Shown one piece after another: positions 29,014 to 40,915 of a stretch of DNA of 64,000 bases (position 1 is the first letter of the stretch; the number at the start of each line of letters is the position of its first letter). This stretch comes from Haliotis cracherodii (taxonomy: Eukaryota). Where the stretch lies: the NCBI RefSeq assembly GCF_022045235.1, contig NW_027266330.1, positions 15,624,001-15,688,000 on the forward strand, in the 5' to 3' direction. The notes below the pieces were generated by a model. The model saw nothing but the letters and a program-made list of their open reading frames with translations, was not told the DNA's origin and searched no databases. Made by a program: the position numbers and the translations under genes.

Positions 29014-29548
29014 AGTAGTTGTGTACTGGGGTATGGAACACCTCAGGATTATGGAACCACTCAGGATTATGGAACCGGAAGTGACGTCACATCCTCTGTG
29101 ACGTCACTTCCGGTCACGTGACCTGCGCAGTGCATGATGGGACTCTGCGCGTGCGCCTCCAAGATGGCGTCGCTTCCGTTTCCGGTGGCGTGCGCCTCCA
29201 AGAGGGCGTGGCTTCCGTGTCCGGTGGCGTGCGCCTCCAAGAGGGGCGTCGCTTCCGTGTCCGGAGGCGCGCGCCTCCAAGAGGGGCGTCGCTTCCGTGT
29301 CCGGAGGCGCGCGCCTCCAAGAGGGTGGCGCTTCCGTGTCCGGTGGCGCGCGCCTCCAGGGGGTGGCGGTGGTGGAGGGAGGGAGGGAGGGAGGGAGGGT
29401 GGTGGTGGTGAAGGGAGGGAGGGAGGGAGGAAGGAAAGGAGGAGGAGACGGGTTCATGGTGTGGGTGGGTGGGTGGGTGGGAGGGTCGTCAAAGCAAAGG
29501 AGGAAAGTTGTCTTTCGGGAGAGATGGGTGGCCCTGAAAAGGGCCGTT
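29014..29548 (+). repeat. Left terminal inverted repeat (535 bp)
   Basis: Reverse complement of 40365-40915; by eye differs only in (GGAG)n copy number (6 vs 10). Confidence 0.95.
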
Positions 29549-29550
29549 GG
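29511..29550 (-). terminator. Histone-type mRNA 3' stem-loop plus downstream element (for the Zn-knuckle gene)
   Basis: Minus strand CCAAC-GGCCCTTTTCAGGGCC-ACCCA-TCTCTCCC-GAAAGA; stem-loop at 29530-29545, ~130 nt after the stop at 29679. Confidence 0.85.
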
Positions 29551-29678
29551 AAAACAAACTGGAAACTGGAAACTGGAAACGACAGGAAACGTCAGGAACA
29601 CTGGAACACTGGAACACTGGAAAAACTGCAAACGATGGGACACTGGTAAAAAACAGTGGGGTAGCATGGCCCCATGCG

Positions 29679-30281
29679 TTAGTCACTTTGTTCAGATGAT
29701 CTCTCTTCTTCACCCTCTACTTCCATCTCATCCTCGGACTGAAGGTGTCGTCGGCGCTTTGAAGCGTGCTTTCTTGAGAAGCTTCTGGCCCGTTTTCTTT
29801 TCTCTACAAGAGGTGTGATGTCCGCACGGAGTTGTGCGAGGCATTCTTTTAGGTCGAGGACATCGACGTGCACGTCTTCGATGAGATGAACCACTTGTGT
29901 CACGGGTGTCACGGGTGTCACGGGTGCCACGGGTGTCGACGTGGACGGTGTTGCTGACGTTTTCTTTCGACTGGGTTCTGGGCAATCTGCAGCGAAATGA
30001 CCCAGGGCTTGACAGTTGTAACAGTGGTCCAGGCGATGAGAAGTCTTCTTTCGACTGGGTTCTGGGCAATCTGCAGCGAAATGACCCATGGCTTCACAGT
30101 TGTAACAGGGACCCAGGTTCCGATTCTCCTGCTTCTCTTGACTGTTCATCTTCGGACAGACATAGTGACGGTGACCTTGAGTGCCACACTCGAGGCATGT
30201 CACTTCAGGGCAGTACAGGTAACTGTGACTGTCGGTCTGGCACTTCATACAACTGTATCGAGCTGGCATGATGGGTTTCAT
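29679..30281 (-). CDS. Four-CCHC zinc-knuckle protein with basic NLS-like and acidic tail (~200 aa)
   Basis: Four CX2CX4HX4C motifs (CMKC..H..C, CLEC..H..C, CYNC..H..C x2); start taken at the ATG 30281 (or 30269) downstream of TATAAAA 30333-30339. Confidence 0.85.
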   Translation of the reverse strand: MKPIMPARYSCMKCQTDSHSYLYCPEVTCLECGTQGHRHYVCPKMNSQEKQENRNLGPCYNCEAMGHFAADCPEPSRKKTSHRLDHCYNCQALGHFAADCPEPSRKKTSATPSTSTPVAPVTPVTPVTQVVHLIEDVHVDVLDLKECLAQLRADITPLVEKRKRARSFSRKHASKRRRHLQSEDEMEVEGEEERSSEQSD

Positions 30282-30330
30282 AGAATGCAGTGTGTGTGTG
30301 TGTGTGTGAGTGGCTTCGCTCTTGTTTTGT

Positions 30331-30600
30331 TTTTTTATAGGAGAGTCACTGACACCCACCCTCCTGATTGGTTCCCCAGGCCGCGCCCCCGATTGGTTCG
30401 TTTCGGGGCCTGGTCTGCACCTCGGTTTTCCAAAACGGACCGACCCCTGTGTTTCTTTTCCATAGGAAATGGATTTTACCATGGGAGAGAAAGCACAACC
30501 CCGGTTCGACCATTCAGAGTCCCGCATGACCCGAGCACGGTCTCTGATTGGTCGACAACCCAGGCTTCGGATTGGTCCAATTTCGATCCGGTTTTTTTTT
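30331..30600 (-). promoter_or_regulatory. Shared CCAAT/TATA promoter cassette, copy A
   Basis: Homologous to 33403-33618, 38015-38322 and 39705-40015; several CCAAT boxes, TATAAAA ~50 nt before the ATG. Confidence 0.8.
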
Positions 30601-30809
30601 TATCGGGGTGTGCATTTCGATCCTGTTTTGTTTTTCTTCATCCTACAGACCACAGAACACGACTATGAGTTTTTAAAAAAAATTTAATCCCCTCGCTCAC
30701 ATGAACCAACACCACAAAACAAAAAGTCACAGGATGAGGGGGCCGTCCCTGTGACTTTTGTGAACACTGGGGGTATGAACGTCTGTACACTTTGAAAAAA
30801 GAAACGTTG

Positions 30810-31322
30810 TCACTTGGGGTGAACAAGACACTCGACTCTTCTCTTCCGTGCTTCTTGGGACACCAAACGTCTGTATTTTTCGTTCACTTCTCCATCAGGA
30901 CAAAACACACACAAGTATTCGCAGGGCACTTTGGCGTGCTTCAGATGTTCTTTCCAGGGTTGGTCTGTGGCTTCCCATTGGCGGAGTGACACACCGCAGC
31001 AATAACAGGTCACACAGTCACCTTGTCCTGGATAGAAATAGCCAGCCATGGCCATGTCATACGGGGTCTGGGTCATCTGTTGAGGCCACGTTTTAAAAGA
31101 TCTCAGACGTTCTTGAAATGAATCATAGTGAGGATGAGAAGGATGACACAGGGTGTAAGAAGGAAAAGGTCCCTCCAGAATGTCACTGAGTCGCCATGTG
31201 TCGTCCCTAAAGAGGGAACGTTTTCTCGCTTCTTGTTCTCTCGCCTTTTCAGACACCCACTCGGAATCGGTGACGACATCTCGGGAGGATGACATGGCAT
31301 TCATAGAACGTCTTTGCTCCAT
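30810..31322 (-). CDS. Single-BIR inhibitor-of-apoptosis-like protein 1 (170 aa)
   Basis: BIR signature RLRSF..WP...MAMAGYFY.GQGDCVTCYCC...WEATDQPWKEH...C; CATAAAA upstream near 31370. Confidence 0.9.
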   Translation of the reverse strand: MEQRRSMNAMSSSRDVVTDSEWVSEKAREQEARKRSLFRDDTWRLSDILEGPFPSYTLCHPSHPHYDSFQERLRSFKTWPQQMTQTPYDMAMAGYFYPGQGDCVTCYCCGVSLRQWEATDQPWKEHLKHAKVPCEYLCVFCPDGEVNEKYRRLVSQEARKRRVECLVHPK

Positions 31323-39107: not shown

Positions 39108-39150
39108 AAAACGGCCCTTTTCAGGGCCACCCATCTCACCCAAAAGACAA
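39108..39150 (+). terminator. Histone-type mRNA 3' stem-loop plus downstream element (for IAP2)
   Basis: AAAAC-GGCCCTTTTCAGGGCC(39113-39128)-ACCCA-TCTCACCC-AAAAGACAA; AATAAA further downstream at 39238. Confidence 0.85.
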
Positions 39151-39704
39151 CTTTCTACCTTTGCTTTGCCAAACAATGACAATCCAAAACAAAGAACCCA
39201 CACCCTCCCCTAGGCCTCTTGGAGGCACACGTCTAAAAATAAAATAAATAGATATAAATATAAATAGATCAATAGAGACACGTGGTACACTACGTGTGCA
39301 TGGAGACACGAGTCAAACATCACGTGTGCATGAAAACACGTGTCACAGTACGTCTGTCGACTTACACGGGTGTCAACACCTCGGTATCCTTAAATAATCA
39401 TAATAATAATAATTTGAAGACACACACACACACAGGACACCACGTGTACATGACGTTCACATCGCGACACTACGTTTTGCCTGACCACACGCTATTCTAT
39501 ACATCAACGTCAACGTCTGTTTGAAGACATACACACATACCCACACACACACATGCACACATGACATTCCGATTGGCATGGGAGTGACACACACGTACAT
39601 CACGTAGGCATTCCCACGTTCATGTCTACCGATGAAGGTCCACCTTCCTTTAGCATTCAGACGACCGTCTACCTCAAAAAAAAATACCAAGGCTACCCAA
39701 GAAG

Positions 39705-40015
39705 AAAAAAACCGGATCGAAATGGGACCAATCCGAAGCCTGGGTTGTCGACCAATCAGAAGCGGTGCTCGGACCAGGTGGGGCTCTGATTGGCCGAACC
39801 GGGGTTGTGCTTTCTCTCCCATGGTAAAATCCATTTCCTATGGAAAAGAAACACAGGGGTCGGTCCGTTTTGGAAAACCGAGGTGCTGACCAGGCCCCGG
39901 AACGAACCAATCGGAGCTGCGGTCTGGCGAACCAACCAGGAGGGTGGGTGTCAGTACCTCTCCTATAAAACAACAGTGGATTCGAGTGGGTCAGTGTCAC
40001 TTGTAAAATTGATTC
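39705..40015 (+). promoter_or_regulatory. Shared CCAAT/TATA promoter cassette, copy D
   Basis: CCAAT boxes near 39728, 39752, 39789 (reverse) and 39907; TATAAAA 39964-39970; leader shared with copy C. Confidence 0.8.
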
Positions 40016-40018
40016 ATC

Positions 40019-40357
40019 ATGATGAGCAGCAGCAACAGCAACAGCAACAACTACCACATGAAAGAAAACTGGGATTTAGAAATCGCCACAGTGAAACAAC
40101 CTTTGCCCGGGTGGAAAGAAGCATCACCACCACCACCACCATGGTCTCCAGCATGGCAATGCGACAGATGCCAAGGGGGCCTGCCTGTGTACGCCCTTGG
40201 CACAAGGGCACGGGATGGGACTTTCGAATGTGTGTACTGTAAGACCATCCTCAAGGACACCTACGTGCGTCGGTTAACGCACACCAGTAGGTGTCCTGTC
40301 AGACGTCAAATGAAAGTCCACCCGTGCCTTTGCACCATGGCGTGCACATGCATGTAA
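40019..40357 (+). CDS. Small Cys-rich Zn-binding protein (112 aa), CxxC-x19-CxxC, polyproline, C-terminal CTCM
   Basis: ORF fills exactly the space between promoter copy D and the histone stem-loop 10 nt after its stop. Confidence 0.75.
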   Translation: MMSSSNSNSNNYHMKENWDLEIATVKQPLPGWKEASPPPPPWSPAWQCDRCQGGLPVYALGTRARDGTFECVYCKTILKDTYVRRLTHTSRCPVRRQMKVHPCLCTMACTCM

Positions 40358-40362
40358 ATATC

Positions 40363-40405
40363 AAAACGGCCCTTTTCAGGGCCACCCATCTCTCCCGAAA
40401 GACAA
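40363..40405 (+). terminator. Histone-type mRNA 3' stem-loop plus downstream element (inner edge of the right TIR)
   Basis: AAAAC-GGCCCTTTTCAGGGCC(40368-40383)-ACCCA-TCTCTCCC-GAAAGACAA. Confidence 0.88.
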
Positions 40406-40915
40406 CTTTCCTCCTTTGCTTTGACGACCCTCCCACCCACCCACCCACCCACACCATGAACCCGTCTCCTCCTCCTTTCCTTCCTCCCTCCCTCCCTCCC
40501 TTCACCACCACCACCCTCCCTCCCTCCCTCCCTCCCTCCCTCCCTCCCTCCCTCCACCACCGCCACCCCCTGGAGGCGCGCGCCACCGGACACGGAAGCG
40601 CCACCCTCTTGGAGGCGCGCGCCTCCGGACACGGAAGCGACGCCCCTCTTGGAGGCGCGCGCCTCCGGACACGGAAGCGACGCCCCTCTTGGAGGCGCAC
40701 GCCACCGGACACGGAAGCCACGCCCTCTTGGAGGCGCACGCCACCGGAAACGGAAGCGACGCCATCTTGGAGGCGCACGCGCAGAGTCCCATCATGCACT
40801 GCGCAGGTCACGTGACCGGAAGTGACGTCACAGAGGATGTGACGTCACTTCCGGTTCCATAATCCTGAGTGGTTCCATAATCCTGAGGTGTTCCATACCC
40901 CAGTACACAACTACT
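40365..40915 (-). repeat. Right terminal inverted repeat (551 bp)
   Basis: Inverted copy of 29014-29548. Confidence 0.95.

Follow-up and report, generated by a model that had tools for sequence, protein, structure and literature searches.

A probable bipartite Polinton in the abalone Haliotis cracherodii, with polymerase and capsid genes on separate elements that share their termini

Alpha adintoviruses, or pPolB2 Polintons (Eupolintoviridae), are described as single elements of 13-25 kb carrying a protein-primed DNA polymerase B (pPolB) of OTU-/VSR type, an integrase (INT) with rve domain and chromodomain, an ATPase, a penton protein, a double-jelly-roll (DJR) major capsid protein (MCP), the protease adenain and Oncoid-/IAP-like genes, with AGT-repeat ends and duplications of 6 bp at the target site (TSDs) (PMC8502044; 10.1101/2023.08.22.554363). 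For vertebrate Mavericks, a mean length of about 17 kb that varies by about 10% is reported (PMC8097293). Most known multipartite genomes belong to viruses of plants and fungi, and the animal cases given in a 2016 review comprise only ssDNA bidensoviruses and one RNA virus, polydnaviruses being excluded (PMC5094692). For the origin of such genomes, a cheating model as outlined in PMC10159356 predicts that complementary defectives replace the complete genome. Here we describe an element, segment A, located at 29014..40915 (11.9 kb) of a 64,000-nucleotide stretch of the genome of the abalone Haliotis cracherodii (NCBI RefSeq assembly GCF_022045235.1, contig NW_027266330.1, positions 15,624,001 to 15,688,000 of the forward strand; hereafter, the window). 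The evidence makes it probable that A is one segment of a bipartite Alpha-type Polinton/adintovirus of abalone, born of complementary gene loss: A and a second element, segment B, together hold the complete Polinton/adintovirus core gene set, with the same features as the Alpha adintoviruses, on two molecules of 10-12 kb, each bounded by terminal inverted repeats (TIRs), instead of one.

Segment A starts with AGTAGT and finishes with ACTACT, and its GC content is 0.52, compared to 0.40 in the flanks. The left TIR (29014..29548, plus strand, 535 nt) has the AGTAGT end and 18-bp and 39-bp repeats, and is common to segment B and to a third class of elements, C; it differs from the right TIR (40365..40915, minus strand, 551 nt) by 0 mismatches and one 16-nt microsatellite indel. 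Sequence reading therefore confirmed 29014 and 40915 as complete ends with near-identical long TIRs, as proposed in the first-pass annotation, a model's reading of the window from its letters. Long TIRs with a short terminal repeat and a 6-bp TSD are a Polinton/adintovirus feature, found in A. The TSD of the window copy, GTAGTA (left copy 29008..29013, right copy 40916..40921), is uncertain on its own, its insertion site being a (GTA)n run, and is clear in other copies. Microsatellite targeting, an idea suggested by this site, was ruled out by the unrelated targets of 20 other elements.

The largest gene of A encodes a pPolB of 1422 aa (33671..37939, minus strand; DNA_pol_B_2, E 6.6e-35) with vOTU-type Cys/His, Exo I-III, Pol A/B/C and VSR-type motifs. 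Judged from its sequence, A alone appears to provide the protein-primed PolB with N-terminal OTU-type domain that is a Polinton criterion, and none of the others (integrase, ATPase, penton, MCP, adenain). A tblastn comparison of A with 18 genome-derived helper-type proteins (including the cognate integrase, ATPase, penton, capsid protein and protease; three of the set were integrases from this genome) gave nothing below E 0.03, Pfam gave no rve match in A, and 17 collinear A copies leave no room for ATPase, penton, capsid and adenain genes; the absence of integrase, packaging ATPase, protease and capsid noticed at first pass is thus real.

Genome searches, made in one assembly with the best 40 candidates scored, gave 193 candidates for the terminus and 187 for pPolB. 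All the scored pPolB matches (best 40 of 187) were at 98-100% identity, as were the nearest labelled proteins, which come from H. cracherodii. Of 20 TIR-bounded elements fetched, 17 were collinear A copies (10.6-12.0 kb) and all had distinct 6-bp TSDs; 18 further pPolB loci had the A layout wherever ends were located. A is consequently not a simple deletion wreck, as the first-pass annotation had argued. Open frames and pN/pS were scored for pPolB and six small genes across the 17 copies: pN/pS was 0.33 for pPolB (68 synonymous and 73 non-synonymous variants), 0.21 and 0.30 for the genes BIR1 and BIR2, 0.53 for the Oncoid-like gene; the Zn-knuckle gene and ORF157 (ORF, open reading frame) both came to about 1. 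The dN/dS of pPolB against four old copies was 0.23-0.36. The polymerase and both BIR genes are under purifying selection. The left and right TIRs are at least 98% alike within 13 of the 17 copies, yet variable between copies, a likeness that would fit panhandle-type strand-displacement replication of a free linear molecule, the behaviour known from adenovirus-type replication. One A copy (L013/L014, C56:13.86 Mb) has left and right termini of different variant types and is likely a TIR-variant recombinant; single ends with an additional terminal AGT (L069, L091, L111) are expected from slide-back initiation in protein-primed replication.

An exact 24-nt terminal pattern gave 29 forward and 29 reverse matches (0 in the control), all pairing at distances of 8.3-12.0 kb, none of full Polinton length: 22 A pairs (4 of them assigned solely via an internal pPolB match), 3 B and 4 C. 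The gene order of B is: ORF86, ATPase (Pox_A32, E 2.4e-6, Pfam), three ORFs, integrase with chromodomain (rve, E 8e-12; chromo, E 9.4e-9, Pfam), a small hydrophobic ORF, penton, ORF127, MCP and adenain. Penton and adenain were assigned via homology and gene order, Peptidase_C5 reaching only E 0.037. The MCP is a DJR protein according to a predicted alignment-based model with a predicted local distance difference test (pLDDT) score of 91.7 (30 in a single-sequence model); the best match of the model is the Sputnik capsid (E 8.5e-18), followed by iridovirus, PBCV-1 and mavirus. PDB sequence searches with pPolB and with an MCP profile gave nothing significant. Catalytic motifs are intact in the B enzymes and in A's pPolB.

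Candidates for B numbered 76 with MCP and 66 with INT, including 10 MCP matches at 99-100%. Ten B elements read end to end had a uniform layout, one with the MCP deleted, and pPolB was present in none; they measure 10.2-10.6 kb where both ends were found (n=9), the deleted one 8.3 kb. Reading upstream of INT in 16 more B loci reached ORF86 without pPolB in 13, met truncation in 2 and found pPolB in 1; among the INT matches of at least 95% identity, 16 of 18 were read upstream, with pPolB in none. The GC content of B is 0.50-0.51, that of A 0.52, and those of the Alpha- and Beta-type Polintons of the genome 0.42 and 0.38. The dN/dS of the B ATPase against seven old copies was 0.18-0.71. Three B loci on contig C6 (L118/L119, L139 and L122/L123, at 35.79, 35.84 and 40.83 Mb) share one flank and are host segmental duplicates of a single insertion. 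In the older B copies L131, L132 and L135, a second, partial protease gene adjoins ORF86; the TIR was apparently once longer, including the protease 3' end.

The termini of the two segments are common property. The A/B TIR alignment (window versus one B copy) shows 95.5% identity over 555 nt, the first 150 nt are identical in two A/B pairs, and mean identities are similar within and between segments (A-A 0.86, A-B 0.84, B-B 0.84). A tree of 51 termini (36 A, 11 B, 4 C) rejected a B clade (approximately unbiased test, p-AU 9.6e-5). Perfect 6-bp TSDs flank 28 of 35 end pairs in A, 8 of 10 in B and 3 of 3 in C; in the remainder one end was not found (6 pairs), an extra terminal AGT restores the fit (two), or the pair does not fit (one, A). 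Class C consists of 8.7-9.7-kb elements with the same termini as A and B. The three read in both halves are palindromes of about 8.7-9.4 kb with arms of about 4.1 kb, in which B's ORF86, one per arm, was the only gene found, and C was ruled out as A's missing half on these grounds. The C arms carry 159-bp and 22-bp repeats; the copies are young (97-99%) with 6-bp TSDs (L033-L038, L104), further pairs exist, and they look like copy-back defective genomes.

Common descent of A and B left traces in A itself. A matches B just before BIR1 (30810..31322, minus strand, 170 aa, single BIR domain), in three short scars of B's operon (31309..31625, minus strand, upstream of BIR1; E 9e-16, 5e-6 and 4e-14 in the A versus B comparison), and just after it, in a 173-nt non-coding stretch 3' of the gene (30618..30790, minus strand) with 84% identity to B's post-protease stretch. 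The scars correspond to the ATPase upstream region (31565-31625, 89%), the ATPase start (31439-31492, 78%) and the region of the ATPase end and ORF320 start (31309-31380, 82%). As the matches before and after it show, BIR1 stands in place of B's virion and integrase block, at the position of ORF320 to protease.

On contig C3, inverted subterminal repeats enclose a decayed locus (L138+L152) in which pPolB, ATPase, INT, penton, MCP and protease all point the same way, and this order recurs in a monopartite metagenome contig (L165). We placed 62 pPolB loci, out of about 190 candidates, and 56 B loci, out of about 76. The C3 relic is the only one of these 56 B loci within 30 kb of a placed pPolB (n=62), and no placed B locus occurs within that distance of any of the best 40 pPolB copies. 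A junction search also found pPolB sequence 1-3 kb from B-type genes at C4:41.79 Mb and C23:52.51 Mb (INT 87-89%), where the joined state is read from match coordinates. The relic pPolB has no relative above 80% among the best 40 of 193 candidates, indicating that no young copy of the relic lineage is present among those scored, and no young joined A+B copy was found among the placed loci. That A derives from a longer member with integrase, ATPase and capsid genes, the outcome named at first pass as refuting a streamlined element, is true historically, given the decayed joined relics, but no young joined copy was found among the loci placed.

The relic pPolB is at dS 0.37 from modern A, the relic INT and MCP at 0.19-0.20 from modern B, and A-layout copies with dS 0.10-0.36 are present. 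These values would fit an order in which A split off first and the monopartite form lost pPolB later; alternatively, the relic loci are old A-by-B recombinants. The A and B layouts each persist across 10-20% divergence, with dN/dS mostly below 1. Beyond this genome, labelled proteins of red abalone (H. rufescens) include 17 pPolB, 7 Oncoid-like proteins and MCPs in B's 90% cluster; for H. asinina there are 18 MCPs in the 74% cluster, and the nearest pPolB found stands at 47%. A scan of IMG/VR viral contigs with the MCP gave no match, and a metagenome scan with the INT gave 9 distant loci (38-54%) and no close relative; both are weak negatives.

Complete Polintons are also present in the abalone genome. 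A full Alpha Polinton at C4:10273012-10289517 (L055, L056, L061; 16.5 kb, 300-nt TIRs) encodes pPolB, ATPase, INT, penton, MCP, adenain, a BIR gene and an ORF presumably PC4-like, and the A/B proteins are 34-57% identical to its own. The Beta-type family has 444 ATPase candidates, most with a 218-aa open frame, and the six top loci fetched are Beta Polintons. This expansion is unusually large (examples L043-L052: C4:4.15 Mb, C6:6.78 Mb, C5:1.37 Mb, C18:8.01 Mb), several copies have duplicated penton-region ORFs, and at L041 (C67:50678301-50688300) a Beta piece of about 1.9 kb (capsid 5' part and neighbouring ORFs) forms five tandem repeats adjoining an element. In trees, the full Alpha Polintons of abalone are neighbours both of A's pPolB and of B's MCP. 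The ends of the full Alpha and Beta Polintons read match those of A and B over AGTAGT plus at most one base; the full Polintons read, in which the first-pass annotation had suggested looking for A's termini, thus share only 6-7 terminal bases, and both types were ruled out as the cognate helper for this reason. Identity to B's integrase is 24% for Beta and 42-46% for Alpha.

The anatomy and complementarity of the segments, their shared and interleaved termini, the TSDs, the selection and the relics are observed, and complementary genes on separate molecules together with common termini evolving jointly, two of the marks of a bipartite virus, are both present. Under the bipartite reading, segment A (10.6-12.0 kb) would supply the protein-primed polymerase and small host-modulating proteins, and segment B (10.2-10.6 kb) the packaging ATPase, integrase, penton, MCP and maturation protease. 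With both expressed in one cell, A's pPolB would copy A and B from their shared TIRs of about 530 nt by protein priming and strand displacement; panhandle replication would keep both ends of a molecule alike, and recombination would exchange TIR variants between segments. Insertion of the two segments, each with a 6-bp TSD, would fall to B's integrase, and both may be packaged by B's virion proteins. The palindromic C elements, coding neither enzyme, would exploit A's pPolB and B's integrase in trans. The dependence of A and B is probably mutual. The first-pass idea that A borrows its integration agrees with 6-bp TSDs in an element without integrase. The probable partner is no complete helper Polinton but the polymerase-less B, with the same termini. 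The ancestor would have been monopartite (pPolB-ATPase-...-INT-penton-MCP-protease); A would have arisen by substitution of BIR1 for the ATPase-to-protease block and B through loss of pPolB, after which the monopartite form would have decayed. A and B add up to about 22 kb and, speculatively, the split may have made room for A's accessory genes. More tentatively, with slightly less belief than doubt, we consider that the virus is obligately bipartite and multipartite, that both segments are packaged in B-encoded DJR particles, and that the genome keeps a datable record of the transition, in which the monopartite relics are joined by A as the first cheat, B as the second and C as full cheats, in agreement with the prediction of the cheating model in PMC10159356.

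Several points weigh against the bipartite reading. Complementation, virions, free linear DNA, every biochemical step and the order of the two losses are things that we infer from sequence, the order from one fully read relic. Young B copies have a pN/pS of 0.39-0.61 (ATPase, INT, penton, MCP) and 0.91 for the protease, with few variants, and the frames of MCP and protease stay open in no more than 6 of 10 B copies. Terminus labels are more clustered than in shuffles (B 6 changes versus a mean of 10.2, 1 of 500 shuffles as low), and 3 of the 11 B rows of the terminus tree go back to one insertion duplicated by the host. The MCP tree was made by a quick method, without bootstrap. Other integrases and pPolBs with AGTAGT ends exist in the genome (Beta, Alpha), and a rare intact joined copy may exist beyond the best 40 scored, in other individuals or as free virus. 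Reads of 4 runs mapped on the window showed no pile-up of molecule ends, a result that is uninformative as to encapsidation.

It is unlikely that A, B and C are all defective derivatives of a still-active, intact monopartite Polinton that was missed because it is absent from the assembly, fell outside the scored candidates or is present as an exogenous virus alone. The lineage does have monopartite relics, the best 40 candidates of a single assembly were scored, and polB-less Polintons are described beside complete close relatives in Pieris (10.1101/2025.02.07.637071). Against this, 0 of the 29 exact-terminus pairs exceed 12.0 kb, no best-40 pPolB copy lies near a placed B locus (30 kb), and the relics are old (INT 87-89% to modern B), their pPolB lineage having no young member among the best 40 scored. 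Layouts lasting over 10-20% divergence with dN/dS mostly below 1 are also unlike one-off defectives, and the IMG/VR and metagenome scans, weak negatives as they are, provided no close relative.

That A and B are now independent non-autonomous families, each borrowing its missing enzyme from unrelated Polintons via AGTAGT, seems to us quite improbable. The genome has many full Polintons, equipped with an integrase and a pPolB of their own (Beta abundant, Alpha rarer), that start with AGTAGT, and the termini are partly clustered per class. However, the identical 150-nt A/B termini at two points of the tree need exchange between co-replicating molecules, the other families match only 6-7 terminal bases and have integrases distant from B's (24% for Beta, 42-46% for Alpha), and cognate enzymes with intact catalytic motifs are at hand. 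Finally, the notion that A is self-sufficient, its pPolB with VSR-type nuclease copying and inserting A while B is A's satellite, is hardly credible despite the VSR-type motif and the greater number of A candidates (187 versus 66-76 for B), as A, B and C all have the same 6-bp TSDs at targets unrelated to each other, and this uniformity is a signature of rve integrases in PMC12220804; the VSR insertion is also present in Polintons for which an integrase of their own is described (10.1101/2023.08.22.554363).

The remaining genes of segment A are small. Both BIR proteins, BIR1 and BIR2 (38338..38796, plus strand, 152 aa, single BIR domain), are open in 17 of 17 copies and carry a BIR domain with Zn ligands, as in IAP apoptosis inhibitors, with Pfam E values of 1.4e-20 and 1.1e-22, which pass the Pfam cut-offs; Pfam gave no RING match in either. 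The intact 1422-aa pPolB and two BIR proteins listed at first pass were recovered by Pfam. The Zn-knuckle (CCHC) gene (29679..30281, minus strand; zf-CCHC, E 1e-13, also passing the Pfam cut-off; pN/pS 1.06) was correctly recognised at that stage and given a start at 30527 that is open in 6 of 17 copies; the start is most likely 30281 (200 aa, open in 17 of 17). The Oncoid-like protein (32080..32634, minus strand, 184 aa, open in 16 of 17) has an LxCxD motif, an acidic run and two CxxC pairs, the last two being features used for Oncoid proteins in section 3.2 of PMC8502044. The E1A-like character attributed to it at first pass holds for the acidic run after the motif and the paired CxxC and fails for the LxCxE Rb-binding motif, which reads LVCDD, that is LxCxD, in 16 of 16 matched copies. 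Of the homologs found for it, 15 of 16 are labelled Haliotis and one has no label; it had no match in Pfam or PHROG and no usable Atlas match.

ORF157 (32697..33170, minus strand), a basic, Thr-rich protein open in 16 of 17 copies, is a seventh gene overlooked in the first gene list; in comparisons with old copies its dN/dS is 0.41-0.53 in three cases and 1.01 in another, and it also had no usable Atlas match. The small Cys-rich Zn protein (40019..40357, plus strand, 107-112 aa) occurs with two alternative, interchangeable N-terminal types among copies, and its gene terminates at the TIR border. A CCAAT-rich module, which may act as a promoter, is present in 4 copies in A and has a 69% relative in B: 30328..30607 (minus strand), 33403..33646 (minus strand, upstream of ORF157 and the Oncoid-like gene), 38015..38340 (between the divergent pPolB and BIR2) and 39696..40013 (plus strand, upstream of the small Zn protein). 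The stretch 38850-39526 is absent or substituted in several A copies. Cell-cycle and apoptosis roles of the accessory proteins would be hypothetical. Cargo of this kind is already known: section 3.2 of PMC8502044 reports Oncoid and IAP genes for adintoviruses. A VSR insertion, called apparently functional, is on record for the pPolB2 of molluscs (10.1101/2023.08.22.554363).

Around the element, the window contains a dispersed SINE-like repeat with a tRNA-like GTTCGA box and an (ACTC)n tail (12109-12275, 17870-18036, 25767-25933, 28044-28162, 44324-44490, 52746-52912 and 60325-60488), which shows very high depth in every read set mapped. Tandem arrays lie at 126-824, 43121-43665, 49221-50848 and 60632-63085 (units of 60, 50, 86/89 and 68/70 bp, respectively), the last two changing unit length midway. 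Part of pPolB is contained in 17 of 21 listed sequencing runs, which come from four organisms and of which none is recorded as RNA. Some read results were not used as evidence: A-like sequence in 29-30 of 30 bins of the mapped runs; no empty-site joint among the rows listed and no listed contig spanning two genes; and, in two runs only guessed to be RNA, the depth of run X6 concentrated on the Oncoid-ORF157-pPolB part.

A split Polinton, if true, would extend multipartite organisation to DJR dsDNA elements, with both halves, their freeloaders and their ancestor preserved as insertions of many ages within one genome. Loss order, segment ratio and selection on trans-acting genes thereby become measurable, and the origin of multipartite genomes a directly testable question. 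Polintons are defined by pPolB plus integrase, and neither abalone half has both; surveys demanding the two on one contig would class both halves as broken and overlook such systems. No bipartite Polinton was found in the literature searched, with Repbase, most subscription papers and bioRxiv supplements outside its reach.

Among partial likenesses, the C elements are ordinary fold-back Polinton derivatives. The yeast cytoplasmic linear plasmids pGKL1 and pGKL2 form a dependent pair. Plasmids of this type are described as deriving from Polintons through loss of the morphogenetic module (PMC11071308), as A does; unlike them, A has kept its integration, with a 6-bp TSD, and has a partner with matching ends on which the module lives on. 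The polB-less Polintons described in Pieris and other insects (10.1101/2025.02.07.637071) are, like B, TIR-bounded and mobile with capsid and integrase, but the same genome also holds complete Polintons, highly similar to them, that have kept polB, and the passages describing them present no polB-only partner, whereas in abalone the polB-only partner is the commoner form and the complete form was found only decayed. A further parallel in organisation is given by the bidnaviruses (Bombyx mori bidensovirus, Vesanto virus), described as segmented, with matching termini and an Alpha-type pPolB like the abalone pair (PMC8502044), and by the Acheta domesticus segmented densovirus, with NS and VP cassettes on separate segments; these are, as described, ssDNA parvovirus-like viruses with a single-jelly-roll capsid and no integrase, whereas the abalone pair has a DJR capsid and an integrase, and both its segments are endogenous.

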